In this document: positions 2,665 through 63,143 of the stretch, one piece after another
Layout: the number at the start of each line of letters is the position of its first letter
Numbering within the stretch: position 1 is the stretch's first letter
Origin: Emiliania huxleyi CCMP1516
Taxonomy: Eukaryota
NCBI RefSeq assembly: GCF_000372725.1
Contig: NW_005201381.1
Span: 307,953 to 371,952, forward strand
DNA length: 64,000 bases
Reading direction: 5' to 3'
Translations under genes and position numbers: made by a program
The notes under the pieces: generated by a model
Told to the model about the DNA's origin: nothing
Databases searched by the model: none
What the model saw: only the letters and a program-made list of their open reading frames with translations

Positions 2665-5112
2665 ATGGTCTGTGCGATCCTCTGCCTCGCCAGTGCGCAC
2701 GCCTCGGTGCTCTCCGCACCAGCCGAGCCGCCTCTCACCCCCGAGAACATCAATCCGCGGCTGGTCGCAGCGGAGTACGCCGTGCGGGGCAGGCTGCTCG
2801 ACCGGGCCAAAGAGCTCGAGTCGGTGGGGAGGCGGACGGTCAAGTGCAACATCGGGAATCCGCAGGCGCTGGGCCAGAGGCCGCTCTCGTGGGTGAGACA
2901 GGTCCTCTCCCTCGTTCTCAACGCCGACCTACTCGAGGCGGCCGAGGCGGCGGCATGCGGCAGCAGTGACGGCGAGGCGCTGCGGGCGCTCTTCCCGCCA
3001 GACGCGGTGGCGCGGGCGAGGGTGTACGTGGACGCCATCTCGTCGGCGGGCGCGTACTCCGACTCGCAGGGCGTGCTATGCGTGCGCGAGGAGGTTGCGC
3101 ACTTCCTCCGCGAGCGGGACGGCTGCGGCTCCGAGGCGCGCGGCCAGAGCTGTATATGCACCTCTGCACCCTCCGGCACTGCCGTCGGGCAGCCCTGCTC
3201 AGCACCTCTGCAGGAGGAGGGTGCTGCGTCCGTCACCTGCGTGGGCCGCGCCTGCCCCCTCGCACCTGCCCCACGGACGACACTATAGTCGCCCCCGTGA
3301 ATACTTTATTCTGTGAGAGCCCTGGTGTGAAGAGTGCGTGAGGGGTCGCACCCGTTGCACCCGGACCTGCCTCCCAGGCGCGCGACGTCTTCCTCACGGA
3401 TGGCGCGTCGGCGGGCGTGCGCGCGCTGCTTCAGGCGCCGCCCAAGTCGTGGAGACTCGCCCACTTGATCACCTCCCCGTCACATCCTACACACCTTGAC
3501 CTGCACCATCCTCCCACCTCACCCGGACCGAGGCCTTACCCTCACCTAATCCCGTGTCCATGCGCGTGTCCCTGGTACCTCTTCCTCCCTGGCACGTCCC
3601 CAGGCGCTACTCGGCCAGCCGGGTGTCGACGCGATCCTGGCGCCCTCTCCCGTCTACCCTCTCTACTCTGCCCTCTCGACGCTGCTCGACGGCGCCGCGC
3701 TCCGCCCACCGAGGGCGTGTCCAGGACGTGTCCAGGACGTGTCGAGGACGTGCTCTCACAGGCGGCGCCGCGCTCTACCCGCTCACCGAAGACGCCGCCG
3801 GCACGTGGGGCATCAGAGTGTCCAACCTCGAGGCATCGCTGCAGCTCGCGCGCGCGAGGTGCGCGATCTCCCCATATCTCCCCATACCTCCCCATACCTC
3901 CCCATACCTCCCCATACCTCCCCATACCTCCCCATACCTCCCCATACCTCCCCATGTCTCGCTGGACGACGCGTGGTGCGCGATTTTCTCCCCCTCTCTC
4001 CCCACAGGGGGTCGAACGTGCGCGCGCTCGTCGTGATCAACCCCGGCAACCCGACTGGCCAGTGCATGAGCGCGGAGGAGGTTGCAGCCGTGCTCGAGTT
4101 TGCGGCGCGGGAAGGGCTCGTTCTGCTCGCAGACGAGGTCTACCAGACTAACCCTAAACCTGACCCTAACGCTAACGCTAACCCTAACCCTAACCCTAAC
4201 CCTAACCCTAACCCTAACCCTAACCCTAACCCTAGGTCTACCAGGCGAATGTCTACAACGGCGGACCCGCGCGCACCGGCAAGCGGCGGAACGACTTCCA
4301 CTCCTTCCGGCGCGCGCTCGCGCTGCTGCGGCAGACGAAGCCGCAGCTGGCTGCGAGAGCGCAGCTCGTCTCGATGCACTCCACCTCGAAGGGCTTCTAT
4401 GGCGAGTGCGGGCTGCGCGGCGGCTTCTTCGCCCTCGATGGCAACTGGGACGACGGCGTGCGGTCGCAGCTCGTCAAGCTCTCCTGGACCTTTCCTGGAC
4501 CTTTCCTGGACCTTTCCTGGACCTTTCCTAGGTCGCAGCTCGTCAAGCTCGCCTCCATCTGCCTCTGCTCGAACGTCGTCGGCCAGCTGGCCATGGGTTT
4601 GGTCGTCTCGCCGCCCCGGCCCGGCATGCCCTCCCATCATACCTCCAGAGTACCGAACCCAGTGTGGGTTCAGTCCCGTGGGTGGTGTGGTAGGCATGCC
4701 CTCCCACGACACGTTCGCCGCAGAGAGAGGCGCCATCCTCGAGTCGCTCCGCGCACGCGCAGACACGCTCGCCGCCGCGCTTGACGCGCTGCCCGGCGTC
4801 ACTTGCGCGCCTGCTGAGGGCGCGCTCTACCTCTTCCCTCGCATCGCCCTCCCGCCGGCGGCGGTCGCCGCGGCGCGCGAGGCGGGCGTCGCGCCGGACG
4901 AGCTCTACGCGATGCGGCTGCTCGACGCGACGGGTCTGGTGGTGGTGCCTGGGTCGGGCTTCGGCCAGCCCGACCCCGAGGCGTACCACGTGCGCACCAC
5001 CTTCCTCCCTCCCGCCGACCAGCTCGAGCAGGTCACCTCCGCCATCGCCGCCTTCCACCGCTCTTTTGTCGACGAGTTCGCCACGCCCGCCGCCGCCGCC
5101 GCAACCGCGTGA
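2665..5112 (+). CDS. Alanine aminotransferase / glutamate:glyoxylate aminotransferase (PLP fold I), 8 exons
   Basis: Motifs EYAVRG, CNIGNPQALGQ, GAYSDSQG, VFLTDGAS, VINPGNPTGQ, LADEVYQ, SMHSTSKGFYGECGLRGG, EGALYLFP, VVPGSGFGQ and HVRTTFLP. Introns 3136-3377, 3435-3603, 3692-3761, 3859-4007, 4138-4235, 4463-4531 and 4624-4693 give an open frame. Hydrophobic N-terminus. Confidence 0.95.
4149..4234 (+). repeat. Interstitial telomere-like (CCCTAA)n tract in an intron
   Basis: About 14 units of ccctaa and variants between the donor at 4138 and the acceptor at 4234-4235. Confidence 0.95.
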
Positions 5113-6772
5113 GGCGCGGGCCGATAGAGCACCGGCCGCTTGCTGGCACCGGCCGCGATTTGCGCGCCGCGGCCGAGACCCTCCGTCCCTCCCTCAGCGG
5201 TGCGCCGAGCGCCCGGGTGGAAGAACTCCGTCTCCGTGCTAGGTGCACGTGCTCGTGTTGGGTGTGTGCGATGTGCGTGTGGGGTGCTGGGGAGTTGATC
5301 ATACAGACGGACGGGCGTAAGCGTTGTACACACACACAGGTAAAGTGTGACACTTTACCTCCTAAACGGACTTTACCTAAGCTAAACGGACTTTACTCCA
5401 CAATGGTCTCACCCCTCCTTCTCAGCCACAGGCTTCTCCTGCCCGAGCGTGCTCTTCGGCGTCTCTCGGCCCACGACTCTCATGGCCATCATGGTCTCTT
5501 CCCGCCCGTGCTCGTCTCCTCTCGACCTGGCTCCGAGGTAGTACGCTGCAGCGGCAGCGACAGCGAGGGCCAGCCCGAGTTTGTCCGTGGATCTGACAAC
5601 GGCGAGTGTGGCCTTTCGCTGCTTGTGCTGCTGGACCATGTCCACAAAGCAACGCTGGTACGGCACGCCCCCGGGTGAGTCTCGCGCCTCGCTGTCGCCC
5701 GCGCCGTGAGAAGCTCAAAGCAAAAAAAAACTCCCGGGAGGCGACATCGAGTGTGTACGTCGTGTGCTGGTGTGATCTGTGATCTGTGAGGGTCCGCCCG
5801 CAGGCGCATTTTTACCGAGCTCCGAGGCGGTGCCCTGGTGCCGAGCGCAGGCAGTGCCCACCGGTCAGACAAACACAACATCTCTCTCTCTCTCCGGTCG
5901 GACAGCATTGTAGATCCCAGGGCGAGGGTGGTGGAGAGGGCCGGCGGTCCGTGTCTGGTGTTCTTAGCTCCGGGTTGTGAATGAGCTTGCCTGCCCCTGG
6001 GGGGGCGGTGACTGAGTGCGGTCGAGCCGCCCGCGGCGGAGGCAAGGCGGCAAAGGGTGGCAAGGGCGGCGGCAAGGCCAAGGGCGGTGGCAAGGGTTGT
6101 GGCCGTGTGGCGCACCAGACCCGCTTTGCGCCGCCGCCCTCAACGCCCGATATACTCGGTTAGAGCCGGCGGAGCGACGGCGGCAAAGGTGCGGCCGCCG
6201 CGACCTCATACGGTGTCGAGCGCCGTAGAGACGGCCCCGAGAGCCGCCACCAGGTGTGCCACGACCGCAGTCGCGAGGCTCGTGGCGATGGATGCGCCAG
6301 ACTCGCTTTGCGCCGCCGCCCTCAACGCCCGATACTCGATCAGAGCCGGCGGAGCGACGGCGGCAGAGTTGCGGCCGCCGGCGACCTTCCCCTCGACCAC
6401 GCCGCCGACCCGTCGACAAGCACGCGTGGACTGCCATCGAGAAGAAGGAGAAGGAGGGCGGCGCATCCGGAGCCCGCGGGCGCGGCGTGGGCGGGCGCGG
6501 GCGCGGGCGGGCGCGCGGGAACCCCGCCAGCGGAGGCGACAATGCCTCTGGCGGCGCTGCAGGCGGCGCGCGGCGCGCCCCTCGCCGGTCTCCCGCACGC
6601 TCCTGAGGGCCGAGAGGGCCGAGAGGCGGGGTTGGTGACCCGGGGGCATGGGCGGTGCGGCCCGCGCCGCGCGCGGGCGCGTGGCAGCCCGTGAGTGCCG
6701 AGATCGGGTCTGTGCTTCGACGTAGCATGGGCCCCCGGAGGCCCAAGCATCTACAGCAGCGGCGAAGTGAGC

Positions 6773-7676
6773 CTCTGGGCCGGCGCGGGGGCCCCCGGAG
6801 GCACCGTGCGCCGCGCCGCAGTGCGGAAACGGGGCTCCGGCTCTACTAGTCTCTACTAGCACCAACTTCCCGATCTAACCCGGTCTAACAGAGGGCAGAT
6901 TTGGAGAGATCTCGAGGAGTACATACAGATAGACCCTCTAACCATAAGAAAACTCCGACCTGATCGGTCGTACTGACCGCCGACAGATCACTCCAGACAG
7001 CAGACAGCGCGACGTCTGCACGCGGCCGGCCGGGCGAGAGGCTTGACACGATCCGACCCTGCGACCCTGACGCTGCAGCTCTAGCTATCAGACATGCACT
7101 GCTGACTGCTGCCACAATATGCGACCTGTGCTGGCCCACTTGGCGGCCTTCCCGGTCAGTGGTGAGGCGCAGTTCAGAGCTGTCGATGGCGCGATGCCGC
7201 ACTGGTCCCACATTGGTGACACGAGACCACCAAGTTTGCCAGTCCAAGAGAGAGGCACCGGCGCTGTCCTGTGAAGGTGCGTGGTCCCTCCTGACTGCCC
7301 ATGCGCGCGAGGCTGTGTAGGCATAGCCTCGAGAGTGCCAGCAGCCAATCCGAGGCGACGCGCATTGCGCCAGAAGCGTGCACACGATGGAAGGACACCT
7401 TCCTACTGGTCGTAGAATCAGGTCGTCACTGAATGCTTGATACTAAGGCCGCGAGCTATGCAGGTGATCAATTGTGCATCATGGCACGGTCAGCAGCGCC
7501 GACAGGCTGTCGCAAGGCGTGATAGCATGGCCGCAAGTACGCAGAATTCCCATGAAAACAAGTAAAAATCGCGAAAAAAAGAAAAAATCCCGAAAAAATC
7601 GGCGCCTGCGGCGGGCCGTGGGAACCCATCTCCCCCCCGCATGGACACCCTCTGGGGGCCCCGCGCCGGCCCAGAG
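6773..7676. mobile_element. Non-autonomous TIR DNA transposon with 8-bp TSD
   Basis: TIRs ctctgggccggcgcgggggccccc / gggggccccgcgccggcccagag. Perfect TSD AAGTGAGC at 6765-6772 and 7677-7684. Second copy at 63144-64000. Confidence 0.9.
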
Positions 7677-7756
7677 AAGTGAGCGTGTTTGTGGTGTTGG
7701 TGTGACGTCTGAGCTTGGATCTGTGACTAAAGCCGCTTACCACTGATGGATCCCCA

Positions 7757-8608
7757 GGCCGAGCGTTTTTGATCTCTGGGTCAGTGGGGGGCCGAGCCGC
7801 CTCGGGGTGGCGGGCGGGCGGGCGTTTTGAAAAACAGAAAACAGAAAACAGAGGGGGGCCAGGGCCCCCACTACGATTAGACACACGCACCTGGCTCCTG
7901 GGACAAGGGGCGAGAATCGCGCAGCATGCAGTTCAGCGGAGATGGGAGAAGCTGAGAGGGGGGGGGGGGGGGACGTCCCGACACGGCAGCTTGGAGCTGA
8001 CCCCAGGAGAGAGAACGAGAACAGCGATGGCGCCCCCATATGACCGTAGACAGAAATGACGAGCCGACAGCGATGCAGCGGCAGCGAAGGCGGCGAGAAG
8101 GGCCCGGACCGCCGGGCGGCAGCAGAGACATCGGCGGACGGGGGAGCACACGAGACACGTCGGCATAGGAGCCAGGGGTGTGGGCTGGGCCTGCATCATG
8201 AATGGGCCTGATAGCGACGGCGGCGACGTAGGCGAGACGGCGGCGAGGGTGGCGACGGTCACGATGTTACGACGATGAAGCTGACGAAATGGATGACGCC
8301 ATCGCGCAACAATGGACATATCCTCGATGTCGTCGTCCTTGCCGGAAGGGGCAGCGCACGCGCCTCTGAAGATCGAGGCGCGTGGCTCAAAGCCGGCGCT
8401 GCGCGGGGTTTCGTGCCCATCCGACATGGTCTACTTTTCCATTTTTTGGATGCCGTGGTCGTGGGGGTCACTCACGACCCGCCGACGAGGTACCGTAGGC
8501 GGCGCGCTTTGACGGTTCTACATTTTGTTTTTGTTTTCAGTCTAGGGGGCCCGACCCCCTCAGAGGCGGCGGGCGGGCGCCCACTGACCCAGAAATCAAA
8601 AAAACTCC
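7757..8608. mobile_element. Non-autonomous TIR element inserted in the repeat unit
   Basis: tttttgatctctgggtcagtgg (7766-7787) is inverted at 8581-8602, and the segment is absent from the empty copy at 10296. TSD ambiguous (possibly CCA). Confidence 0.75.
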
Positions 8609-8784
8609 ACCCGAATAACACACAGAGTGAGCGCCCCAGCACTTCACTACGGTCTACGCCCTCCGCGCGAAATCACTAGTGGTGCTTTGTGGCAGCACAT
8701 TGTGCTTTGTGGCAGCACGGGTGCGGTGCCCGAGACCGAGTAGAGGCTCTACCATAGAGGGGGCGCTCCGCCGCTAACGTAAGG

Positions 8785-9822
8785 TAGGGTGCCCACAGGA
8801 CCCAAAAGAAAATAGCTTTCCGCCTCAAAAAGGGACGCACGAGCCAAATCTGATGTTGGAGTGTTCCAATAGGAGCGAGGCCTCTTCCGTGGGGGGACCG
8901 AGTGCCTAGGAAAAGAGGGTTCCCCGGTTTGTCACGCGCGAGCACGAGCGTGACACTGCACTTGGCGCCGAGCGCCCGCGGCTCAGACCTTGTGCAGGCC
9001 ACCCCTCGGTGACCATGCCGGTCCGGACCGACGGCGCTCGGTGTGGAGCAAGCAGACCCCCCCCCCCCATCGGCGCGCGCTCGCCATTCCAACGGCCGCC
9101 AGGAGCACCAAGAGGACTCCTCATGGCTGTGGTCAAGTGTGGGCTTCGACCGGCCTCGGCTGGGGGGGCGGGTTGTCCCGGCTGCGGACGCCTTCTGCAG
9201 CCCCCTGGGCCCGTGACAGCACCCCAAAACTGCCCCTCGGCGGCATACAGCACTGCCAGCCAGCCTCTTCCTCCTCCTAAGGGCTGTACTATAGGCCATA
9301 TTGCGCCGCCTCCTACTGGCAGCCGGGCGGGCGCGCGCCGCGGGCGCCTCGGCGCGCGCACGGCTCGCAAAGTTCGAACGAGTACTGCCGCCCGGCCGCC
9401 TCAAGGCTGCCGGGCGGCAGTACTCGCCTCGCAAGGCGCGCACCGGCTGGTCTGGCTGCTGCGCCGGCGGCCGCTGCGCTGGCCGCTGCTGCGCCGGCTG
9501 GCGGGCGGTACGGCCGCCGGCGGCCGCTGCACCCGCGCCTTCCCTCGCGGGCGCCGTCGCGCTGCGCGCGCCCAACTCTGCTGGTACACGGCACGCGTCG
9601 TCACACAGCCGCGGAGAACAGGCGGTGCTGTGCGTGAAGCGCGCGCGATCTCGTACTTTTAAGGCTGGATCCGGCCATTCCAAGGGTATACCTTTGAGAA
9701 TCCCCAGCGTCCCACCCTCCTAGTCACACTCTCAATATCTCGACTCTCCAACACGAGGTGCTGCGATCGGGGGTGGCCTATTTCTTTTTTCCTTTCTTTT
9801 TTTGGGTCCTGTGGGCACCCTA
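8785..9822. mobile_element. Non-autonomous TIR element, perfect 23-bp TIR, 7-bp TSD
   Basis: TAGGGTGCCCACAGGACCCAAAA / TTTTGGGTCCTGTGGGCACCCTA. CGTAAGG is duplicated at 8778-8784 and 9823-9829 but single in the empty copy (10466-10472). Confidence 0.95.
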
Positions 9823-9891
9823 CGTAAGGGGAAACCCTCAAAGCGGGCAGACCCAGACGCCAGACCAACCCTCCTCTCGGGGAGACCCCGC

Positions 9892-10249
9892 TAGGGTTGT
9901 CAAACGTTAAGAGCTGAACAGTGTTGCTAGTGTTAACAGTAACAACAGAACAACAGTGGGGCTCCCCAACAACCGTAGCTAACGTTAGGCCGGCTGAACA
10001 ACAATAAGGAAGGCCTGGCAGTGACCCACGACGATCTCTAGTGTCCAGTGCGGGTAAAACCCGAAAATACCCGGGAAAACCCAGGTTTTTTCGGGTTTTA
10101 CCCGGGTTTTTTGGCATTTTCTGCTTGCTGACCACTGAACAACAGTAACAACAGTAACAAACAGTAACAGCTTGGGCTGGGGAGAACACTTGAACAACGT
10201 TGAGGATTTCAGCCAACAATAGTGCAACTGTTAGGCCCAAAGTTAACGT
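9892..10249. mobile_element. hAT-like MITE with truncated right end (copy at 33613-33992)
   Basis: Begins TAGGGTTGTCAAACGTTAA and is colinear with 33613-33992. Internal aacagt/gttaac repeats. Confidence 0.8.
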
Positions 10250-11216
10250 CTGAGCTTGGATCTGTGACTAAAGCCGCTTACCACTGATGGATCCCCACCC
10301 GAATAACACACAGTGAGCGCCCCAGCACTTCACTACGGTCTACGCCCTCCGCGCGAAATCACTAGTGGTGCTTTGTGGCAGCACATTGTGCTTTGTGGCA
10401 GCACGGGTGCGTTGCCCGAGACCGAGTAGAGGCTCTACCCTAGAGGGGGCGCTCCGCCGCTCTAACGTAAGGGGAAACCCTCAAAGCGCGCAGACCCAGA
10501 CGCCAGACCAACCCTCCTCTCGGGGAGACCCCGCCCGTGTTTACTTTATGGTTTCCTGGATCCTGCAAACGCGCACCGTAACCCGATCTTGATACATCAT
10601 CCGGCCCCCGCGCTCGCCCGCTCGGGGTGCGCTTCTTTTTTAGGACTTATAGCTCCCCCGGACCTGGGGTGTCCGGCTCCCACCTCCCAGCGTCCGGGGT
10701 GTGAGCGCAGATAACTGCACTCTCCAGGAAAGTGCTCCACCGCAGCGAAATCCGTCTCCCGTCTCCGCGCAAACGCACGAATGAACTATGAAGAAAGAAT
10801 AAAGAAAGAAAGCCCTAAGCCGTGCCCGCCCAATCAAAAAAGTCGCTCGAGGCGAGCTCCCCCATGCATCGTGGCTACCGGCTACCATGCTACGTCATGC
10901 TACCTTGGCCTCTTTCTACTCTGTGCCTTGCGGGCGCTTTGCATCAACCACTCATTCAAATCCGGCCTCCGCCCGCCGCTCGCCTGGTGGCTCGCGCTCG
11001 TGGCCGGCGCCTGCGGCGCCGCGCCTTGCCGCCGCGCCGGCCCCCGCCCGCCCCCGGCCCCACGCGAGGTCGCGCCCAACTCGAAGGTCGGACTGCAGCG
11101 CGCCTTGTAGTCGGCATTGTGCATCCTTACCCAGAAAGGCGCGAGCGCCGTATCGCGCTGCCGCCGCCGCGTGCCCGCCGCCTTCGCCTCGTCCTCCCTC
11201 CGCTCCTACGGTGGAT

Positions 11217-26984: not shown

Positions 26985-27136
26985 GCCTCTACATCGCTCT
27001 ACAACGCACGCAGTTCGTCACGCGGTGGATGTAGAGCTCTACAGCTCTACATTGCTCTACAGCGCTCCAGAGCGCTCTACATCTCTACAGCTCTACAGCG
27101 CTCTACACTCTACATCCTCTACACCCTCCCTCAGGG
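26985..27136. mobile_element. Solo TIR of the CTCTACA MITE family
   Basis: Matches 15130-15270, ending in ccctccctcaggg. Confidence 0.9.
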
Positions 27137-27545
27137 TACGACGAGTTTTTGAGGCGGGGGACCTGCCAGCCGCGCCTGGCGCAGCGCCGATGCTGCACCA
27201 TGTGCGCCGAGGCATTTAGCACTTGTAGCGAGCGCACATGGTGCGGTGCGCGTACTTGAGCAGGCGGTGCGAGCCGCAGTTGGCGCAGGGGCCCTGGGAG
27301 TGGGCGCGCGCGGCATTGACGCGGACCCAGGTATTTCTCGGGTATACCTGGTTTTTTGCAGGTATACCCGGGTTTTACCCGGAGGGTGTGCCAACACCGT
27401 GCTAACGGCTGTGCTAACGCTTGTTTTGGGACTGCCGTTCGACTGTGCTAACACCGACCTTTGCGCCAAGTGTTGGCACGATCTGTAGTCAGTGCTGCCC
27501 CTGGAGGTGTGCTAATGTTAGTCCACCAACCCTGAAGCCCCCTCC

Positions 27546-27930
27546 CCTCTTGCACAACAGGAATTTTGACAATTAACCAGTGGGGAAAGGCACGACTCAC
27601 AATGAACGATGGGCTTGCCCATCCCGGAGTGGTTCGATCCCACACAAACCCGAGACGGTGACGGAATGCTGGCTGATGGTCTCAGGCCCAGTGAGGTAGT
27701 GCATCAGACTATCCCGGATCCTGCTGAACAAGCTCCTCTTGTAGCTCGATCGGTCAAACCGCCATCGCCGTCGGGGAGAGGGGGGACGACACTGCTCCTG
27801 CAGCGTGCACCTCGATCCTGTACCGTGTTTGTTATGACCCCCCCCAATGAACACACCAGTGAGGGAGGGCGAGACGATCGAGGGGTCCCGTACCATGCGG
27901 AATCGACCCTATCCAGTGCTCAAGTGCTCA
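27546..27930 (+). repeat. 385-bp direct repeat, copy 1
   Basis: Near-identical to 31377-31761; ends agtgctcaagtgctca. Confidence 0.95.
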
Positions 27931-28024
27931 AGCATCCGTCCTCTCCGCGCGACCCCGGCCCCTCTCGTAAGCCCTAGTGCGGACGGTTTTTTTGCGGTAT
28001 CTTGATGTATCTCTGCAATATCTG

Positions 28025-28192
28025 ACCGTATCTCCCCGTATCTCCTTGCATCTCATCGCATCTCCCCGTATCTCCCCGTATCTGCCCGTATCTCCCCGTA
28101 TCCGCCCGTATCTCGTATCTCCCGGTATCTCCCGGTATCTCCCGGTATCTCCCGGTATCTCCCGGTATCCCGCCATATCCCGCCATATCCCG
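28025..28192. repeat. 10-bp minisatellite (tatctccc(c/g)g)n
   Basis: Directly visible tandem array. Confidence 0.9.
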
Positions 28193-28679
28193 CCGCGGAT
28201 ACCGCGAAAAAAACCGTCCACACCCGGGATCTCGTAGCCGCAGCCGCGCAGCCGCAGCCGCGGCCAGGCCACTTGCCAGGCCCAACTCTTGCCGCTCTCC
28301 TCTGTGTCGGGTTGTGACGAAATCCCAAGCATCGCGTCTCGTCTCAGAGTTTGACCGTTTTATTTATTTAGCTGGCGGCCAAGTCGGACGAGATGTGCGA
28401 GAGCTTGTCCGACGATGTGACGAGGGGTGAGCGGGGACGGATATTGAAGATCCCTCCACACCAAGATCGTGCAGGGCGGCCGGACACATGTTGTATCCCT
28501 CTAAAATCCCAAGCATCGCGTCTCGTCTCAGAGTTTGACCGTTTTATTTATTTAGCATCCGTCCTCAGCTCACCTTGCCCAGGAGTCGCGAGGGTTTGCC
28601 CCCCCCCCCCCCCCTCCGCCCGCCCCCGCCCCCGCCCCACCACCTCGCGTGTGTGGAGAAGTCAAAACCTTACCTTACC

Positions 28680-29805
28680 TTACCTTGCCCAGCTGCTCCA
28701 TCTCCTCGTCCGTCAGCGCAAACTCCAGCGCGGCCAAGTCGGACGAGATGTGCGAGAGCTTGTCCGACGATGTGACGGCGACCACGTCGCGCTGCAGCAC
28801 CCAGCGCAGTGCCACCTGCACCGGCTCAGTCAGCGGCGCGCTGGCGGCCCCTCACGGCGGGAGAAGGGCGGGTGCATCGCCAAGGCGGCAGGGCGGGGCA
28901 AGGCGCGCCTGAGCCGCAGAGCGGTTGTGCGCCTTTGCGACTGCCTTGACGGTCGGGTCGCTGAGCACGTGGCCTGTGCCGTGCATCGTCACTCCGCCGA
29001 GCGGCGAGTAGGCGGAGTAGTGGACGGCGTGCCTAGAAGGCTCCTAGAAGGTTCCTAGAAGGTTCCTGCTGAGTACCGGGTAGGCGGAGTCGTGGACGGC
29101 GTGCTTGCGGCACGTCTGTCGGGTCGCGTCGTCGCGGCCCCAAAGCTGCGTCGCCTCGGAGTGGCCGCCGATGCTGTAGCCGCACTGGTTGACGGCCGGC
29201 TTCACCTTGACGCGAGGGAGGAGCGCCTCGACGGCGCTGCTGTTGAAGTTCGAGATGCCGATGGCCCGCGCCTTGCCGCTCTTCACTAGCGGCTCGAGCG
29301 CGCGGTACGCCTTCACGGTCTCGTCGAAGCTGGAGCACGGCCAGTGCACCAAAAGCAGGTCGACATAGCTCAGCCCGAGCACCTTTAGATCGTGCAGCGC
29401 GTTTTCGGTCGCGTTGCGCTTGGCGAGCAAACAGAGCGACTTGGTGAACTCGGACGGGCAGCACGGGATCTTTGACGTGACAAAGATCTCTTCGCGAGGA
29501 ATGCCGCTCTCACGCACCGCCGCGCCAACCTCGGCCTGCTGCCGGTCGGTGTACGTGAGGGCCGTGTCGAGGCCGCGGACGCCGAGCTTGAGTGCGGCGC
29601 GGTGATTCCACTCGAAGCCAAAGTTCAGCGTTGGCATCTCCACGCCGGGTGCGATCGTCACACGAGGCACACCGCCGAGCGCGGCGGCGGCAGCGGGGAG
29701 AGGAGCCACGCCGCCGAGCGCGGCGGCGGTGGCAGCAGTGGTGGCGGTGGTGGCGGTGGCGGCGGAAGCGGAGACGAGAAGCAGGCACGTCACGGGCACA
29801 ATCAT
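28680..29805 (-). CDS. Aldo/keto reductase with probable signal peptide (spliced)
   Basis: MIVPVTCLLLVSASA; GVRGLDTALTY; REEIFVTSKI; LGLSYVDLLLVHWP; GKARAIGISNF; KPAVNQ; YSAYSPLGG; AQ|VALRWVLQR. Exact 3' end uncertain. Confidence 0.92.
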
Positions 29806-31376: not shown

Positions 31377-31761
31377 CCTCTTGCACAACAGGAATTTTGA
31401 CAATTAACCAGTGGGGAAAGGCACGACTCACAATGAACGATGGGCTTGCCCATCCCGGAGTGGTTCGATCCCACACAAACCCGAGACGGTGACGGAATGC
31501 TGGCTGATGGTCTCAGGCCCAGTGAGGTAGTGCATCAGACTATCCCGGATCCTGCTGAACAAGCTCCTCTTGTAGCTCGATCGGTCACACCGCCATCGCC
31601 GTCGGGGAGAGGGGGGACGACACTGCTCCTGCAGCGTGCACCTCGATCCTGTACCGTGTTTGTTATGACCCCCCCCAATGAACATACCAGTGAGGGAGGG
31701 CGAGACGATCGAGGGGTCCCGTACCATGCGGAATCGACCCTATCCAGTGCTCAAGTGCTCA
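31377..31761 (+). repeat. 385-bp direct repeat, copy 2
   Basis: Near-identical to 27546-27930; followed by (ggta)n. Confidence 0.95.
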
Positions 31762-32121
31762 GGTAGGTAGGTAGGGCGTTTTGGCGTGAGTCAGTCAGTG
31801 TCGACAACCCACCCTATCTCCGGCTAGGAGCCATAAACAGGGGGGTGCGTCGAAAGCAAATTTGATAACAGACGCCCCTCGCTTTTGCAAAATCCTGCAA
31901 AGGTGGGGACGTGTCTGTCCTCGACCCAGCCCGTTTTATTTATTTATTTGTTACCTAGCTTGGGATGTCCGTTTTATTTATTTATTTAGGGACTGAGATG
32001 AGAGATAGGACGAGGCAGACGCCCAAGGATGGGCGACGGCTGGCAAGCACCACACTCACCCCTCTCCTTCAATCCCATGTCCATGTCCATGTGTGTGATT
32101 ATTAGAAGCCAACAAGAAATC

Positions 32122-33165
32122 AGGCTCCAGGTGGCTTCGGCCCCTCCAAGCCACCTCTGCGCTGCATGCCCCCCCTCGCCACACCTGGAGGGCTGGAGCA
32201 CGTGCGCCACCTGGGCGTCACTTCGGGAATTTCATCGTGCGTGTTCTTTTGAATAGGAATGTACTATACACCGCCTCGGCACCACGAGCCGCCCCCGCCG
32301 CGCCTCCACAATCCACTCTCGCAACTCTACCGCGCAGCCAGCACACGACGTCGGCGAGGCCGACAAAGCTCTGCATGGCCTGGTTTATCGAGGATCGAGT
32401 GATGGCGTATTATTGGGCAGTCTTCTCATTGGCGAGTCAGACTGCTCAGCGTCGGCAGCAACGGCGCGTGAGCAGCGCAGCCACCGGCTCCTTCCGTGGC
32501 TCGGATTTTCCGTTTTTTTATTCAAACTTCGCCAGGTGGCGCACGTGCTCCGGCCCTCCAGGTGTGGCGAGGGGGGGCATGCAGGTGGCTTGGAGGGGCC
32601 GAAGCCACCTGGCGCCACATGCCATGCCCACCTATCGGGCCCAGGTGGCGCACGTGCTCCAGCCCTCCACGTGTGGCGAGGGGGGCGGGGCAGGTGGAGG
32701 GGCCGAACGAAGCCACCTGGAGCCACCTGCCCAGGCCCAGGTGGCGCACGTGCTCCAGCCCTCCTCGTGTGGCGAGGGAGGGGGGGCAGGTGGCTTGGAG
32801 GGGGCCGAAGCCCTTGGCGCCACCCGAGCGCTCACATGGCCACAGGCGGCGTTTGGAATCTACTCCAGGTGCTTTTTGCACTGTTTTGCCCATGGCCACA
32901 GGCGGCGTAAGCCATCTGCTCCAGGTGCTTTTTGCACTGTTTTGCCCATGTCCACAGGCGGCGTAAGCCATCTGCTCCAGGTGCTTTTTGCACTGTTTTG
33001 CTCATGGAGCAAGTGGCTGAAGCCACCTGCATTTTTGTGCAAAAGGCTCTAAAATGGCCGAAATCCCTGGTGGCGCACGTGGCGATTGCCACGTGTGCCT
33101 CGGCTAAGAGGCCTCTCCAGGCGAGAGTCAGGTGGCACGACGCGAGTCAGGTGGCGTGGAGCCTC
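32122..33165. mobile_element. Repeat-rich non-autonomous element (CCAGGTGGC/GCCACCTGG motifs; 56-bp tandem unit at 32863-33005)
   Basis: Many direct and inverted copies of ccaggtggcgcacgtgctccagccctcc. Short terminal inversion aggctcca/tggagcct. Confidence 0.55.
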
Positions 33166-33612
33166 CTACCTGGGGACATCTCTCCGCGCTTGTCGCGCCT
33201 GATGCGCTCTGCGAGGGGGCCGGGGGTCGTAGTTGTCGTGCTCGAGCGTCGGGAAGACAGCGCGCCTTTGCGACCTTTGTCGGCCCCGAGCTGCCATCCC
33301 CAGTACAAGGTGTACCAGTCGCCGCGAGGATAGAACCGCAAGCGTTGACCTTCTTCTTGTGTGTGTGGTGGCGGCGTGCCGTCCTCCCATCTCTCTCTTG
33401 GGTTGTCTTGTCTTTTCTTTGAGAGAAAAAATCTTTCAAATCCACGTGAGATAAAATGGGATGTGCATCCCAGCTCACATTTTCATTTATCATTTTTGAA
33501 GCACGACACATTGATCGATCAAAAACGCGCGGTGACGCCGCTTAATTGCCGCTTGGATATATTCTTATTCAAATTTTGGTTTTAAAAACATCAAAGCACT
33601 TCATCCAAACAC

Positions 33613-33992
33613 TAGAGCTGTCAAACGTTAAGAGCTGAACAGTGTTGCTGGTGTTACAGTGTTGTTGTTAACAGTAACAACAGAACAACATTGGGGCTCC
33701 CCAACAACAGTAGCTAACGTTAGGCCGGCTGAACAACAACAAGGAAGGCCTGGCAGTGACCCACGACGATCTCCAGCGTCCAGTGCGGGTAATACCCGAA
33801 AATACCCGGGAAACCCCAGGTATTTTCGGGGTTTACCCGGGTTTTTTTTCTGCTTGCTGACCGCTGAACAACAGTAACAACAGTGTAACAAACAGTAACA
33901 GCAAAGGCTGGGGTGAACACTTGAACAACGTTAAGGATTTCAGCCAACACTAGCGCAACTGTTAGGCCCAAAGTTAATGTTAAACAGCTCTA
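33613..33992. mobile_element. hAT-like MITE
   Basis: Imperfect TIR tagagctgtcaaacgttaa / ttaatgttaaacagctcta; homologous to 9892-10249. No TSD seen. Confidence 0.8.
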
Positions 33993-34566
33993 CTTGTTGA
34001 GACGATTTCAGCCAACAATAGTGCAACTCCATGCGATCTCGGATATTTTTTGACCGGAACGCCAAAAAACTACTATGTCTTCGAGTGAAAAGCAATCCGA
34101 GCAAAGCCGCGGCCGCAGTGAATTAAAGGCGGTTTTCGAGGGGGGATCTGGAGAATCTGGGAATCTGCTCACCACGGACCCCCACCTCATCGAAAAACTT
34201 TTCACTCCAAGACATAGTACTTTTTTAAGGTGCTCTACAAGCTAGGCAAAAGATATGGCATTGCAGGCCATTTAGGGCCCCTTAGACGGTCACTGAGTAG
34301 GCCAAAATCCCCACTCCCCACTGGGGCCGGGAGCAACCTTAAGGCGTTTGACAGCTCCACGGGTCAAACACCTCGACAGATGTTAGGCATGGAATGGATT
34401 TGAACTTTTCAGGCAAAATTAATCAAATATATCCTAGCGGGTTTGTGATCAAAAATGTTGGGATGGGGATGCCCCCAACCCCCCCCAAACATCCGTCATC
34501 CCATGTGTCTGTTATCAGGTGTGTCTTTATTGACTACCTGTGTATTGGCCGTGTAGACCCGCCGCG

Positions 34567-36503: not shown

Positions 36504-39479
36504 ATGATGCGCTCGAAGGCTCCCTCTGTCCTCGGCAAGCGGCCGCCACGCCGCGAGACGTTCGAGGGCAGCCGCACGCTTCCTCCCTCGCGGGCGCTAA
36601 CCGACGGCGCCATTGCCGCGCTGAGCAAAGAGGGAAGGCCGGCGGACGGCACGCTCGATCCGCCGGCACTGCTGCAGGTGGTTTTCCTGACTCGACAGGA
36701 GACTACAACACCAGGCGCCGCGCGGTACCGCCTTCTCCTCTCCGACGGCCGACACACGAGGCCCGTAATGCTCGCAACAAATAACCACCACCTAGTCGAG
36801 GGCGGCGCTCTTGCACCGAATGCTCTCGTCCGGCTGCGGGTGTGCAAGAGCGTGAGTGTCGCGGGCAAGTCGCTGCTCATAGCGAGCGACGTGGAGCCAG
36901 CGGGGGAAAACGACGGCGTCCTCGGCACGCCAAGCCCGTGGGAAGAGCGTCCGCGGGAGGAGACGCCGCCACCAGGCAAGGGCGTGGCCACGGGCGGAGG
37001 CGGGTCGGTGTCAAGCCTCTTCACGACTGCGGGCGGCGGTGCCGTGCACCTGTCGGAGCGCGGCCGTCGCCGCGCGCAGCAGGCGCTGAGGGAGACCGCC
37101 ACCGACCCGCTGACACCTCCCCCTCTGCCGCCGTGCGTCGGGCCAGCTGCGGCGGCGAGGGAGGCGGCGGCGGCGGCGAGGGAGGCGGCGGCGAGGGAGG
37201 CGGCGGCGAGGGAGGCGGCGGCGGCAGAGGGGGTGGCGGCAGAGGAGGCGGCGGCGGAGGAGGCGGCAGCAGAGGAGGCGGCGGCTGCAGGGACGGCGGC
37301 AGCGGCGGAGGCGGAGGCCGCGGATGCGGCGGCGAGGGAGGCAGCGGCGAGGGAGGAGGCGGCGAGGGAGGCGGCGGCAGCGGCGGCGGCAGGGGAGGCG
37401 GAAGCGAGGGAGGGTGCGGAGGCAGGGGCGGGTGGCCGCAGCAGGCGGCGGCGCAAGCCCGCATCCCCTGCACTCAAGGCTCTGGTCGGGATGGGGTTCG
37501 ACGCCGAGGCTAGAGATCAGCCGAGATCAGCCGAGATCAGCCGAGATCAGCCGAGAATCCGGAATGTGTTCGAGGCAGAGGCTGCCGGCGCGACGCTGCA
37601 CAAGACACGCCCACGACACGGCCAACAGGCAACACGTTCAAGACACGTCCGAGACACGTCCGAGACGCGTCCGTAGGCCGCCCGCGCAGCCCTCGCCTCG
37701 AGCGGCGGAGACGCGCCTCGTGCGACGGAGCTGCTGCTCTCTGCGCCAGCGGCGGAGGCAACTGCCGCCACGAACCCCGGCGGTGGCGCCGCGGCGGCAG
37801 CCGAAGGCGGACGCGAGTCTGGCGGCAGAGGTAGGAAGGCCGGCGGCAAGGCTGGCGGCAAGGCTGGCGGCAAGGCGGCGGTGGAAGGGGTGGGGATAGG
37901 GATCGAGGCGGGGACGGGGGCGGGGGCGGGGGCGGAGGCAGGGGCGGAGGCGGGGGCGGAGGCGGAGGCGGGGGCGGAGGCGGGGGTGGGGGCGGGGGCG
38001 GAGGCGGAGGCGGAGGCGGAGGCAGGGGCGGAGGCGGGGGCGGAGGCGGAGGCGGGGGCGGAGGCGGCGGCGGACACTAGCGCTGCAGTGCTTCAGACGT
38101 CGGGAGGTGACACTGCCGAGCCCGCCGCCAAGCCAACCGCCTCAAGGCCCAAGCCCGCTGCCGCCAAGCCCACCGCCGCCGAGGCGGAGGCGGCGCGGCC
38201 GCCGGCCAAGCGAGCGCGCGGCGCGACCTGGAAGGGCGCCCGGGGTAAGGCGGGGGAGGCGGAGCGGGAGGCGGCGGTCCAGGCGGGGGAGCGGGGGGGT
38301 GGCGGGAGGGCGGCAGCCTCCGCCCGAAAGGCGGCCCCTCCCCGCCCGCCCGCCCGCCCGAGCAGGGTCCGCACCGTCGTCGCGCTCGGCGCGCGCATCT
38401 CGCACCGCACGGGCGTCCGTCCGACTCTTCCGCCCCGACCCGCAACACTTCCTCCACCTCTCCACCCCTCCAGGCGCCGACCTCGCTCCGGCAGAGGCGG
38501 AGGCGGTGGCGGCCGCCGCCGCCGCCCTCGGTGCGCGCGTGCACACAAAGGGCGAGAGCCTCCCTCAAGGCTGCTCCCACGTCGTCATCCGAGAGGGCGC
38601 GACGCGGCTGCCGCTGCGCGCCTACTTCGCCGCCGCCGCGGGGTGCTGGACCGTCACCGCCGCTTGGGCGTGTCCCCTCCCTTGAAGCGATGGCGCGGCG
38701 GGCCAGACGAGCCGTCTCGGAGCCTTCCCCGGAGGCCCGCGTAGGTGTTTCGTTCCCTCGAGGCGGGGGAGTGGGCTTGCCCGGACGAGTACGAGGCGCG
38801 GGCCGGAGGCGTCCGCGAGGCGCGGCTGGCGCGCGCACTGACTGGGGCGGGCCCGCTGGCGGGTCAGACGGTCTGCTTCTGGCGCTGGTCGTTGCTGCCC
38901 GCCCTCTAGCTGTGAACAGCGTCTCTTCACACCTCGAGCTGTGAACAGGCGCGGGTCGCCGCTGCCCGCCGCGACGCTCGCAGCGCTCGTGCGGTGCGCG
39001 GGCGGCGAGGTGCTTGCCCGCCCTCCCCCCCTCCCGCCTCCTCGCCTCTGCTCGCGCCCCATCCCTTTCTCGCCTCGCCGCCGCGCGTCGCCTCTCTCGC
39101 CCCGAGCCCCCCTCCCTCCGCGTCCAGGTGAGCGCCTCGCCGCGCGCATGCACCCTCATCGTCACCGACGAAGCCGACAAGGTCCCCGTCAGCGTCGCCA
39201 GGGCGGCGGCCGGCGCGCCAAAGGCCGCCGCACCGAGGCAGCCGCGCGCCTGTGAGGAGGGGCGCCTCCCCACGCGCGCTGTCTGCCGAGCAGGTACTCA
39301 CCCTCAAGGCGCTCCTCGACGCCATCTGCGCGCCCCCGGGGGTGGAGATCCCGCCCACGTCGGCCGAGGGCCAAGCCGAGGTGGGCGAGGGCTCAGCCGC
39401 GGAGGTTGGCGGCGACATGGCGCGGTCGGAGGGCGAGGAGGGCGAGAGCGAGGACGGCGACATCTCGGACGAGTATTGA
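36504..39479 (+). CDS. RPA70 N-terminal OB fold + BRC-like repeat + UBA + tandem BRCT-like protein (spliced)
   Basis: LTDGAIAAL..PALLQV..RYRLLLSDG....VMLAT..HHLVEGG (RPA70N-like); LFTTAGGGAVHLSE...RAQ (BRC-like); LKALVGMGFDAE|AARAALASSGGD..RATELLL (UBA); CSHVVI...LRAYFAAAAGCWTVTAAW (BRCT). Confidence 0.7.
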
Positions 39480-42456: not shown

Positions 42457-44985
42457 ATGGTGGCGGCGGCGGCGAGGGCGGCGGCGGCGGCGGCGGCGGC
42501 GGCGGAGAGGGACGCGAAGGCGACGGCAGAGGCGGAGAGGGCGGAGGAGGCGGCGAGGGCGGCGGAGGCAAGGGCGGAGGCGGCGATTGCGGAGGCCGCG
42601 GAGGTGGGGTCGGCGGACGTGGCGGCGGGTGCATCTGGGCGCCAGCTGATACTTGACGAGGTCGGCACGGGTATCGTGGAAGCGGCTGAATGTGGCGACG
42701 AGGAGAGAGTGCGGGCGCTCCTCGAGAGAGGCGTGGAAACTGACGAGACGTACACCACCTCGGATGGCAAGACTACTGGCGTCACGCTGCTGATGCTCGC
42801 CGCCGCGCTCGGACACGAGGCGATCGTCGAGATGTTGCTGGAGCACGGCGCGACGGTCGACATGCAGGACAGCAAGGGCATTACTGCGCTCATGTACGCC
42901 GCCATCAAGGGGTGCGTGCCCATCGTGAAGCAGCTGCTGCAGCAGGGCGCTGATATCGACTTGCCAGACTCGCTGTTCGGCCGCACCGCGCTGATGTTCG
43001 CAGCACTCTTCAACCGCCCCAAGGTCGTGCGCTACCTGCTGAAGAGGGGCGCGGACCCAGAGAAGCGCAACATCGATGGCGAGACTGCGCTCGAGCTCGC
43101 CACGGAGAAGGGCAGCAAAGAGAGCGCCCGGGTGCTTGACAACCTCCTCAGCCGAGGGGGGGGAGGCACGGGGCAGGGGTCAACCACGGGGGAGGGGGAC
43201 GTTGTCGCAGAGGCTGCTACGCTGGGCGATGAGGCGGCGGTGCGGGAATCGCTCGATGGGGGCGGGCAGAAGATCAACGCGACCTTCAACGACGGCACCG
43301 CGACCGGCCTCACGCTGCTGATGATTGCGTCGCAGTGGGGGCACGCGGACATGGTCGACATTCTCATTCAACGAGGCGCTACGGTCGATCTCAAGGACAG
43401 CGAGGGCCGCACCGCGCTGATGGCGGCCGCGACGAAAGGGCACGGGCGAATCGTGGAGACGCTGCTCGACCACTCCGCCGAGGTCAACCTGGAGAACACC
43501 ACCGGAGGCACCGCGCTGATGTACGCCGCCACCAAGGGGCACGAGCACATTGTGCACACGTTGCTCGGGCGCGGCGCCGCGGTGGACCACCGCGCCAGCG
43601 ACGGCGCAACTGCGCTGATGAATGCGGCCTACTATAACCACCCCGGCACCGTGTGCTGCCTGCTGCAAGCGGGCGCCAAGTTGGACTGGCGCGACGAATA
43701 CGACCGCACCGCGCTGTCCATGGCCAACCGCCGAGGCCATACCGCATGCGTCGAGATCTTCAAGGAGCACCTCAAAGGGCTGACGGGGGACGAGAGCGCG
43801 CGCAACCTGGCGGACGAGGCCGAGGCGGAGGAGCGCCGGGCAGAGGCTGAGAAGAAGGCCGCGGCAGACTCGGCGGAGGAGCGCCAGAAGGCGGCCGCGC
43901 GACGGGCAGAGGCAGAGGAGAGGGACATCGTGACCAAGCAGATCCCACTCGATGTCGTCTCCGCCGTCAGGCGAGGCAAGGAGGCGGACGAGGAGAGGAC
44001 GCTGGCATGGATCGAGAGCGGCGGGCAGATCAACGAGGGCTTCGTGGACGGCGAAGCGGCCGGCGTCACGCTGCTGATGGTGGCCACCATCTACGGGCAC
44101 GAGCGGTTGGTCGACACGCTGCTGGAGCGTGGTGCTAGCGTCGACCAGCAGAACGAAAACGGCTTCACCGCTCTGATGTACGCGGCGCACACCGGTCACG
44201 AGGGGCTGGCTGACAAGCTGCTCAAGGCGGGAGCAGAGGTAGACCGACGGCCCAACGATGGCGGCACCGCGCTGTTTCTCGCCGTCATGTTCGACCACCC
44301 TGCCGTCGTGCGGCTGCTGCTGGCGGCCGGTGCGGACCCAGAGGCTCGCAATTCGAGGGGCAAGACAGCGCTGCAGATGGCCAAGAGTTTGCCAAAAGAC
44401 AAGTGCGGTGCCGCGGCTGTGGTCAAGGAGCACTTGGCCGCCTTGAACGCTTCGAGGGAGGCGGATGCCGCGCGGTGCGGTGAGGCGCTGCTGGCCGAGA
44501 TTGAGGCGGAGGCGGAGGCGGAACGCGCCAAGGAGAGCAAGGGGAGCAGGAAGGCCAAGAAGAAGAAGAAGAGGGGCAAGGGTGGCGGAAGCGGCGCGGC
44601 TGGACCGTCCAGCACCGCTCCGTCGGGGGCGGACGGGGCGGGGGTGGGGGTGGAGGCGGAGGTGGGGGCGGCGGCGGGGGCGGGGGCAGATTCGGCCGAG
44701 GAGGACGGGAGCGGACAGGTCCGAGAGGCGGGGGAGGCGCAAGAGGCGTCACCGCTGCCCGAGCCGCCTGAGATCTTCGTGTGTCCCATCACCCAGGAGC
44801 TGATGCAGGACCCCGTCATGGCGACCGACGGGCACACGTACGAGCGGCACGCCGTCGAGCGCTGGTTCGCGACAAGACTCACGAGCCCAAAGACAGGCGC
44901 GGCGCTTGACCTGGCCTTGCTTCTGCCCAACCATGCCATGCGGCACCAGATTATTGAGTGGCGCGAGGCGCATGGATGGAAGTAA
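42457..44985 (+). CDS. Ankyrin-repeat protein with C-terminal U-box (E3 ligase-like), intronless
   Basis: Many GxTALMxAA..GH..IV..LL..GA repeats. U-box PEIFVCPITQELMQDPV...DGHTYER.AVERW...TSPKT...LLPNHAMRHQIIEW. Confidence 0.95.
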   Translation: MVAAAARAAAAAAAAAERDAKATAEAERAEEAARAAEARAEAAIAEAAEVGSADVAAGASGRQLILDEVGTGIVEAAECGDEERVRALLERGVETDETYTTSDGKTTGVTLLMLAAALGHEAIVEMLLEHGATVDMQDSKGITALMYAAIKGCVPIVKQLLQQGADIDLPDSLFGRTALMFAALFNRPKVVRYLLKRGADPEKRNIDGETALELATEKGSKESARVLDNLLSRGGGGTGQGSTTGEGDVVAEAATLGDEAAVRESLDGGGQKINATFNDGTATGLTLLMIASQWGHADMVDILIQRGATVDLKDSEGRTALMAAATKGHGRIVETLLDHSAEVNLENTTGGTALMYAATKGHEHIVHTLLGRGAAVDHRASDGATALMNAAYYNHPGTVCCLLQAGAKLDWRDEYDRTALSMANRRGHTACVEIFKEHLKGLTGDESARNLADEAEAEERRAEAEKKAAADSAEERQKAAARRAEAEERDIVTKQIPLDVVSAVRRGKEADEERTLAWIESGGQINEGFVDGEAAGVTLLMVATIYGHERLVDTLLERGASVDQQNENGFTALMYAAHTGHEGLADKLLKAGAEVDRRPNDGGTALFLAVMFDHPAVVRLLLAAGADPEARNSRGKTALQMAKSLPKDKCGAAAVVKEHLAALNASREADAARCGEALLAEIEAEAEAERAKESKGSRKAKKKKKRGKGGGSGAAGPSSTAPSGADGAGVGVEAEVGAAAGAGADSAEEDGSGQVREAGEAQEASPLPEPPEIFVCPITQELMQDPVMATDGHTYERHAVERWFATRLTSPKTGAALDLALLLPNHAMRHQIIEWREAHGWK

Positions 44986-45351
44986 GTTCGAGCATTCGAG
45001 AGGTTGACAGCCGGCTGGAGTGAGACTGAGACTGAGAGGGCGAAAGACGGGTGGGTCCGAGGGTCCGTACATAGCTATCTGGCGCAGTTTGACTCGCGTG
45101 ACTGCGAGCGGCTGCAGAGTGCCTCGTGGTGTTTCTCTCTTCTACTCGCGCCTCGTCTTTTTTACTAACGTACAAGTTCTTCATCCTTTCGGGGCACGGG
45201 GGCATGCAAGCTTTCCGGGGCCGGGCATGCTGGTTCTGGTGCTGAAGCTGTCCTGTGCGGCCTGCGCGCAGTCCTCAAAAAAGTGCCAGAGTTAGAGCCC
45301 GTATATCCCCGGGTGGAAGGCGTGATCGAGCGTGAGTGCGCACGCGGGCCG

Positions 45352-55675: not shown

Positions 55676-55758
55676 GATGTGGGTCATGATGTGCGAGTCC
55701 GAGACTGAGAGAGCACTTGAGAGAGCGGCAGAGCGCCTGCTGCGGTGCCGGTGGGCCC

Positions 55759-62823: not shown

Positions 62824-63143
62824 GAACACGGAGAGAGATGTGTTCCTTGTGGCTTAGAGGGTGTCGTTTCTGTTAACATTTGCAGCAAACTTGGACACCA
62901 CACACCTTGATTTCCGTGTTCTTGTCGACTTGAACGGACTTGCAGCACCGGGGCTGGCCGTCGGGGCTCTCTTTTCGACCACCAGCTGTGTTTGAGCGGA
63001 CCCGCGCCGCGACCACGTGCACACACCACACAAATAAATAAATAAAACGGACACCTCTACTATAGGAGATGGGTAAAAAGGAACAGGTCCCCGCCCTGCG
63101 GTCTTTGTGCAGGGTTCTTTTGACACACACACAGCACACACAC

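Follow-up and report, generated by a model that had tools for sequence, protein, structure and literature searches.

The alanine aminotransferase (ALT) gene of Emiliania huxleyi CCMP1516 raises the question of how an intron can come to begin with a copy of the first bases of the exon that follows it. The origin of introns outside of transposon bursts is an open question with few clear break-repair cases so far, and in E. huxleyi, a model alga, a mechanism can be tested computationally, since genomes, strains and RNA data are publicly available. The gene was examined within a window of 64 kb, the whole stretch of DNA that was analysed. It lies at 2665..5112 on the forward strand, encodes 526 aa in eight exons (2665-3135, 3378-3434, 3604-3691, 3762-3858, 4008-4137, 4236-4462, 4532-4623 and 4694-5112), and was identified from its frame, from protein matches and from the Pfam class of its product, aminotransferase class I/II (PF00155). 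Excision of the seven introns leaves a clean frame of 1581 nt.

The translation is 100% identical to P0122, a record named Emiliania huxleyi alanine aminotransferase, which may come from the same DNA source and is not counted as independent support. Independent support is given by P0001, a protein from a 1599-nt JGI contig that is identical to the model at 523 of 526 residues, and by RNA. An RNA contig holds 692 letters between 3133 and 4693, the exact length of the spliced model. The joints of introns 6 and 7 are found in all three RNA runs, from three studies, and are absent from the one DNA run among the joints listed. Two joints and one split contig were used, from the 15 listed of 172; these joints cover introns 6 and 7, while introns 1-5 are supported by the length of the RNA contig and by the proteins. 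The letters that fit either side of the joint number 20 for intron 6 and 14 for intron 7, and junctions with 10–25 ambiguous bases are easily put in the wrong place, which is a warning for annotation. The junctions proposed in an earlier note on this DNA, and its claim that the introns are spliced out cleanly, are both upheld by the 526-aa frame, the matching proteins and the RNA. Assembly artefact was rejected as a source of the introns, as they are present in another metagenome contig, where introns 1-3 and the start of intron 4 are nearly unchanged, and in the DNA run, whose contigs run through introns 1-3 and into introns 6 and 7.

Across introns 1 to 7 the exact match between the intron start and the start of the next exon is 7, 4, 3, 1, 9, 19 and 13 nt. 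Intron 1 (3136..3377, GC-AG, 242 nt) has its first 7 nt in common with 3378-3384, with AG before both copies and a non-repetitive filler; this match consists of low-complexity GC sequence and carries little weight by itself. The 4-nt match of intron 2 (3435..3603, GC-AG, 169 nt) is within chance. Intron 3 (3692..3761, GC-AG, 70 nt) carries an 11-nt minisatellite (3712-3752) and has a 13-nt repeat at 3690-3702 and 3763-3775, in which the copy is offset by 3 nt and one GCG of the exon is missing. Because orthologues have equal protein length at this point, either the loss of one GCG from the copy or priming at a CG microhomology is the probable cause. Intron 4 (3859..4007, GT-AG, 149 nt) has no copy of the next exon. 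Inside it a 10-nt repeat (3858-3867 and 3975-3984) surrounds a 10-nt minisatellite (3868-3955), and no AG precedes the second copy; since the intron minus this insert would be 32 nt, below the shortest of the 31 introns analysed in the window (62 nt), the insert is not a simple second insertion. Intron 5 (4138..4235, GT-AG, 98 nt, codon 282 phase 0) shares its first 9 nt with 4236-4244, and its filler is a telomere-type CCCTAA repeat (4148-4234) whose last unit, CCCTAG, is the acceptor. In intron 6 (4463..4531, GT-AG, 69 nt) the first 19 nt equal 4532-4550, or 22 of 23 when the match is extended, and an 11-nt minisatellite (4482-4529) leads to an end in CCTAG. Intron 7 (4624..4693, GC-AG, 70 nt) has the same first 13 nt as 4694-4706, with a non-repetitive filler that contains a small hairpin. 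All seven lie on the forward strand.

The earlier note had placed such repeats at six of the seven introns. Four are clear at the boundary (introns 1, 5, 6 and 7) and one is shifted (intron 3), whereas intron 2 falls within chance and intron 4 has none. Its further statements, that the first copy supplies a GT or GC donor while the filler supplies the AG, that repeat length varies (here 7–27 nt) and that four of the seven ALT donors are GC, agree with what was found.

To measure how far such matches exceed chance we used 21 transcript-confirmed introns of the window, namely the seven of ALT, one from a split RNA contig, ten from RNA joints and three transcript-derived introns of a thioredoxin gene. 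A further ten introns are frame-inferred, for a total of 31. The second set of RNA joints contributed ten of 15 listed (19 in all), the five with sides of 20–23 letters being dropped as repeat artefacts. A review states, in the portion of its text available, that repeats of this kind require a control (PMC3443670). Cross-pairing and permutation within the window served as the control, and the excess remained. Matches of at least 7 nt occur in six of the 21 confirmed introns against 0.05 expected by cross-pairing, or 0.10 with the first two bases given, and matches of at least 9 nt in five of 21 against 0.004. Over positions 3-10, 94 of 168 positions match with 56.3 expected, a value reached in 0 of 20000 permutations. 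On the mirror side, which compares the 3' end of the intron with the upstream exon, 50 positions match against 46.4 expected, and no match of at least 7 nt was seen in the 21 confirmed introns. Even the 23 introns that have no long copy show an excess of matches at positions 2-5 (p=0.004).

A long copy, exact or decayed, is found in 8 of 31 introns of the window, about a quarter, and copy lengths are 7, 9, 9, 11, 13, 13, 19–23, 20 and 25 nt. Minisatellite arrays are flanked by a repeat of at least 9 nt in 6 of 23 cases (0.55 expected); four of these six coincide with intron boundaries, and the other two are internal to introns, where no AG precedes the second copy. A weakly informative annotation-free count of repeats, with tandem arrays masked, gave 7 of 95 of the boundary type and 4 of the mirror type. 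The sample is one 64-kb window, and ALT, which was picked for its pattern, is richer in copies than its neighbours; outside of it, matches of at least 9 nt occur in 2 of 14 confirmed introns. Chance and splice consensus alone were both rejected as sources of the matches. The footprint is real, statistically strong and visible beyond the ALT gene, and the predicted excess over chance holds in the window.

These counts bear on the simplest account of the copies, a plain tandem duplication of an exon piece holding AG/GY, from which both splice sites would be taken. An AG does precede the donor in three of the eight long-repeat introns, and two frame-inferred introns (19296-19456 and 28574-28683) have a 9-nt mirror match. 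However, the donor lacks an upstream AG in the other five, two of which have A or T at -1, the mirror match of at least 7 nt is absent from all 21 confirmed introns, and none of the fillers is exon sequence. Tandem duplication is refuted for introns 6 and 7, and for the pattern as a whole we regard it as very improbable.

Among other introns of the window, one in a neighbouring gene (18199..18440, forward strand, GC-AG, RNA joint) has its first 11 nt equal to the next exon and a C/T-rich low-complexity filler. An intron of an aldo/keto reductase gene (29033..29104, reverse strand, GC-AG, RNA joint) matches the next exon over 13 exact nt and 24 of 25 nt overall, encloses an 11-nt minisatellite, and has AA before its donor (AA/GC). 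Its copy and that of ALT intron 6 are the longest found. At 21460..21532 (forward strand, GC-AG), a frame-inferred intron with indirect RNA support holds an 11-nt minisatellite and a decayed copy of 17 of 20 nt. A candidate intron at 56300-56494 with a 10-nt match was dropped, since its own frame is open and coding-like. Also left out were a 9-nt match at 62163-62234, in a gene for which no continuous frame was obtained, and the introns of a 36.5-kb gene whose homologues are only proteins that read into introns.

Three introns of one neighbouring gene, all on the forward strand, differ from the rest in that they have a common filler, which starts 9 nt past the donor. The intron at 17197..17426 (GC-AG, frame-inferred) has its first 9 nt identical to the next exon and CT before the donor, and within it a 27-nt repeat (17191-17217 and 17258-17284) surrounds a 10-nt minisatellite. 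The intron at 18629..18902 (GT-AG, RNA) has an exact match of 1 nt and 5 of its first 9 nt equal to the exon, while that at 19033..19181 (GA-AG, RNA) has an exact match of 5 nt and 7 of 9, and its rare GA donor is supplied by this exon-like start. Such a family is what would be expected of DNA-transposon introners that have a fixed target duplication, for example of 9 nt, and in which minisatellites have since overwritten the element body. The intron at 18629-18902 also contains a subterminal 9-nt inverted pair, and two exact matches of 9 nt fit this length. In the text available for dinoflagellate genomes, donors are reported to arise from duplicated targets of 4 or 8 nt and to include GA and GC (10.1101/2020.10.14.339549), and the list for CCMP1516 itself comprises 653 introners of five families, their duplication status given as '?' or 'N' in the accessible part of that source (PMC9860276).

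The three homologous introns are probably a case of this overwritten-transposon kind, and the introner reading may be valid for a subset of introns. As a general account it is quite unlikely. A fixed duplication cannot yield 13, 19–23 or 25 nt, and the youngest-looking copies have neither an element body nor inverted ends. Homologous multi-copy bodies within the window are limited to the three introns of the neighbouring gene, with none among the seven of ALT, whose fillers are mutually unrelated except for simple-repeat families. The confinement of the related filler to one gene of the 64-kb window is also compatible with local copying. No terminal inverted repeats were found at the ends of the ALT fillers, but they are missing from many published introner families too.

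Whether the ALT introns were gained together with their copies was examined in 64 homologous loci from a metagenome scan. Locus L034 is genomic, having one intron of its own (codon 144), falls in the sister clade of the E. huxleyi protein (support 99/97), and lacks an intron at all seven ALT sites. L020, with introns at codons 235 and 334 and by reading also in 386, five bases before site 7, lacks sites 1-6, all six that it covers. Two proteins predicted from other contigs, P0007 and P0010, continue without a break across sites 1-6 and extend into introns at other points; P0007 may derive from a transcript that was spliced only in part. Protein length at the ALT intron sites is unchanged relative to orthologues, and the copies equal the E. 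huxleyi exon rather than that of L034. Six of the seven sites have an intron in none of the homologous loci examined, and at these the ALT introns are lineage-specific; they include introns 2 and 4, which have no long copy. The exception is intron 5, whose site is occupied in L025 and L058, which belong to a paralogous clade, and has a donor in the distant L066 (too short to be placed in the tree). The comparison with orthologues turned out as the proposal of intron gain predicts in L034 and L020. The earlier note had named intron positions conserved in distant algae as evidence against its proposal, and the site of intron 5 in part provides such evidence.

The shared position raises the alternative that older introns were rewritten, a copy of the next exon having taken the place of their 5' part. 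This could occur by aborted repair templated by cDNA from the spliced mRNA, or if a duplication spanning the acceptor arose and the old unit was then lost. Rewriting would directly explain both the one-sidedness of the pattern and a filler that is typical intron sequence ending exactly in AG, and local duplications across donors do exist (17191-17284, 3858-3984 and the first intron of L020). Against it are the six sites with no intron in any homologous locus examined, and the fact that no intermediate, in the form of a mid-intron copy of the exon start after AG, was found among the 31 introns. None of the four genomic sequences in the orthologue clade, in either subclade, has intron 5, so that loss followed by parallel gain at a perfect AG/GT requires fewer events, although rewriting of an old intron is possible there. 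Parallel intron gains are frequent in Daphnia, according to the part of that report available (PMC4202315). L034, the closest genomic relative, has 74% protein identity to E. huxleyi ALT and agrees at 96 of 169 four-fold sites, which is near synonymous saturation and means a long branch; because this relative is so distant, gain is not separated from later rewriting by the comparison. On balance we consider rewriting unlikely. As a reference, eight introns of GC-rich homologues (L020, L025, L034 and L058; 24 alignment gaps were found in homologous loci, several of them not introns) have boundary matches of 1–5 nt and five ARPC3 introns have 0–3 nt, all of these introns being undated. In E. huxleyi itself, a strain contig covering introns 1-4 and a DNA run both have the introns, and no intron-less allele was seen in either.

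The boundary copy, clean splicing, a donor within the copy, an AG within the filler and absence from orthologues are all observed. Spliced introns gained by staggered-break repair that captures filler and duplicates the cut site would account for these features, and we give this reading about an even chance of being correct. Two offset nicks 7–27 nt apart, or templated end-joining, would place a copy of the target at either end of a filler, which may be drawn from the common satellite, telomere or intron sequences of the genome. The fillers observed are a telomere repeat, 10–11-nt minisatellites whose families occur repeatedly in the window, and low-complexity or unique DNA. In coding DNA, inserts would be expected to persist only where splicing removes them precisely. 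Since the spliceosome here takes GT, GC and GA as donors, a donor could arise from any target that starts with G followed by T, C or A, whereas the filler would have to provide both the acceptor and the pyrimidine tract; such a filter would produce a one-sided pattern. Copies would decay over time, leaving the short residual matches seen at most other introns. Because two introns also contain the repeat-filler-repeat build in their interior, where AG does not precede its second copy (17191-17284 and 3858-3984), we infer a general mutational process that duplicates its target around a filler, with splicing acting as the filter in exons.

Much the same outcome, by different chemistry, could be reached by target-primed reverse transcription, in which the nicked antisense strand would be extended by a reverse transcriptase, whether telomerase, an enzyme of the non-LTR or Penelope type, or a polymerase of DNA repair. 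The RNA template could be that of telomerase, a satellite transcript or a spliced-out intron with AG at its end, and the length of the duplication would vary with the position of the second nick. Duplications made by target-primed reverse transcription are about 7–25 nt long, and those found here vary from 7 to 27 nt. The telomere fillers at 4148-4234 and 17477-17596 both reach to the acceptor and read as the C-rich strand in the forward direction, as a telomerase template would. The three related fillers of one gene are alike up to the final AG and all in sense orientation. In mammals, telomere sequence is inserted at breaks with target duplication, as the available part of one study describes (PMC2246262). 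However, splicing also selects for sense orientation and a final AG, the three related fillers have a common 5' start as well, unlike 5'-truncated copies, and neither poly(A) tails nor a source element were seen in the 64-kb window. We consider target-primed reverse transcription somewhat unlikely.

Staggered-break repair, the preferred reading, has its nearest counterpart in Daphnia pulex. There, 33 of 90 new introns were described in the available text as having 4–12-nt repeats and were inferred to be gained at staggered breaks (PMC4202315). The E. huxleyi window is alike in its variable repeats, in fillers that have no common element and in absence from outgroups. The earlier note had taken variable-length target duplications for a different mechanism; they do set these introns apart from fixed-duplication introners, but are not a new kind, having been described in Daphnia. 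Relative to what that source reports, the E. huxleyi repeats are longer, reaching 19–27 nt, and nearly all on the donor side, the fillers are GC-rich minisatellites and telomere repeats instead of AT-rich DNA, donors are often GC or GA, and the introns appear fixed in the strains seen where those of Daphnia are polymorphic.

The splice arrangement itself resembles that of the introner-like elements of Symbiodinium and Polarella glacialis, whose classes 4/5 and 6/8/10 take their donor from a fixed 4- or 8-nt duplication (10.1101/2020.10.14.339549, from the part available). Common to both are a donor (GT, GC or GA) from the duplicated target, an acceptor borne by the insert, an unaltered protein and a strong preference for G as the first base of the next exon. 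The dinoflagellate elements, as described there and in PMC9860276, have fixed duplications of 3–9 nt, multi-copy bodies and often inverted ends, whereas the ALT introns have repeats of varying length and unrelated fillers. A haptophyte introner example from Chrysochromulina (4 nt; PMC9860276, seen in excerpt) has the opposite polarity to the E. huxleyi copies. The footprint thus acts like intron gain of the Daphnia break-repair type with the splice logic of introners, and not like a fixed-duplication introner family. Mammalian interstitial telomeric repeats are likewise inserted at breaks, with target duplication in a minority, and no introns are reported in the available part of that study (PMC2246262), whereas in E. 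huxleyi intron 5 the final CCCTAG of the telomere filler is the acceptor.

No description of the footprint for E. huxleyi was found in searches of full-text literature, and prior mention in the genome paper, the 2016 introner paper or supplements is possible. The pattern is likewise undescribed in the available parts of PMC11347168, PMC8379373, PMC2784329, PMC7407515 and 10.1101/2024.06.04.597373. Haptophyte introns with acceptors that end in minisatellite or telomere repeats were found neither in viral contigs (4 and 55 loci, with 13 of the 55 skipped as repeat-rich isolate virus genomes) nor in prokaryote genomes (60 loci).

The donors provide a further connection. E. huxleyi is reported to have 56–65% GC donors and some GA, a shift ascribed to high genomic GC content, with no mention of boundary repeats or intron gain in the portion of the paper available (PMC4028052). 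The window agrees with that report in the use of GC, GT and GA, with 13, 16 and 2 introns respectively among the 31. A duplication process would offer a cause for the GC-donor majority of this species, and predicts that the donor equals the first two bases of the next exon. Because GC is about three times more common than GT in the exons of the window (676 against 235), introns gained by target duplication would mostly have GC donors. Of the 31 next exons, 28 start with G, and donor type follows the exon start (counts of 11 and 2 against 2 and 9, p=0.003), a link that gives p=0.13 when limited to the 21 confirmed introns. The idea in the earlier note that the repeats could explain the excess of GC donors is thus suggestive at the scale of the window and not significant in the confirmed set, and the duplication process may underlie the excess. 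A broader proposal, tentative and in our judgement doubtful, is that a large share of E. huxleyi introns come from one ongoing process that has no transposon body, in which staggered nicks are filled by copying RNA (the telomerase template, transcripts of satellites or spliced-out introns that end in AG) and the duplicated target of 7–27 nt becomes the donor, so that this process, and not base composition acting on old donors, would have made GC the majority donor.

All five introns of the ARPC3 gene (54617-55676) begin with a GT donor and match the start of the following exon over 3 nt at most, in contrast to those of the alanine aminotransferase gene. Three introns of another single gene, at positions 17197-17426, 18629-18902 and 19033-19181, have a filler in common, which begins 9 nt past the donor and extends up to the acceptor, with aligned pieces that are 69-84% identical. 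When two marker motifs of this filler were searched for in the rest of the window, only one match, with 1 mismatch, was obtained. The shared filler could represent either an old family of introners (intron-making elements) or an intron that was copied locally.

The donor of the third of these introns, at 19033, is one of two GA donors with RNA support, and it belongs to the stretch that copies the first bases of the exon; the other, at 23087, is not part of such a copy. A second intron containing telomere repeat was placed by reading frame at 17474-17599. Its 3' end reads CCTAG, and it matches the next exon over just 3 nt.

Mirror matches, in which the end of the intron equals the end of the upstream exon, were found at 9 nt in two putative introns placed by reading frame, 28574-28683 (- strand) and 19296-19456 (+ strand). 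In the DNA downstream of the aldo/keto reductase gene, 48 nt of that gene's exon sequence recur (28375-28422, identical to 28730-28777), flanked on either side by a copy of a 51-nt stretch (28322-28372 and 28506-28556). The region 28322-28556 looks like a templated insert accompanied by a long duplication, located in non-coding DNA.

In a related, haptophyte-like genomic orthologue of the aminotransferase (metagenome locus L020), the first intron (4848-5318) opens with (GT)n(GA)n, and extra copies of the upstream exon end together with the donor lie within it. An orthologous protein record (P0007) is translated through two in-frame introns, at sites other than those of the E. huxleyi aminotransferase; one of the two introns, at codon 334, is common to L020. 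The translated sequences suggest minisatellites resembling those of E. huxleyi.

High-copy repeats occupy 5800-10500, 13700-15300, 27000-28300, 31390-34050 and 63000-64000, with very high DNA depth over the first two stretches. Several occur two times within the window, and one has a CTCTACA-type satellite of 8-10 nt. An intron-rich gene lies at 36504-39479, its first exon carrying a precomputed PF04057 match. Two long genes that appear intron-free by reading (42457-44986 and 45270-46400), presumably encoding ankyrin-like repeats and a sideroflexin-like protein, adjoin genes with one intron per 100-200 nt.
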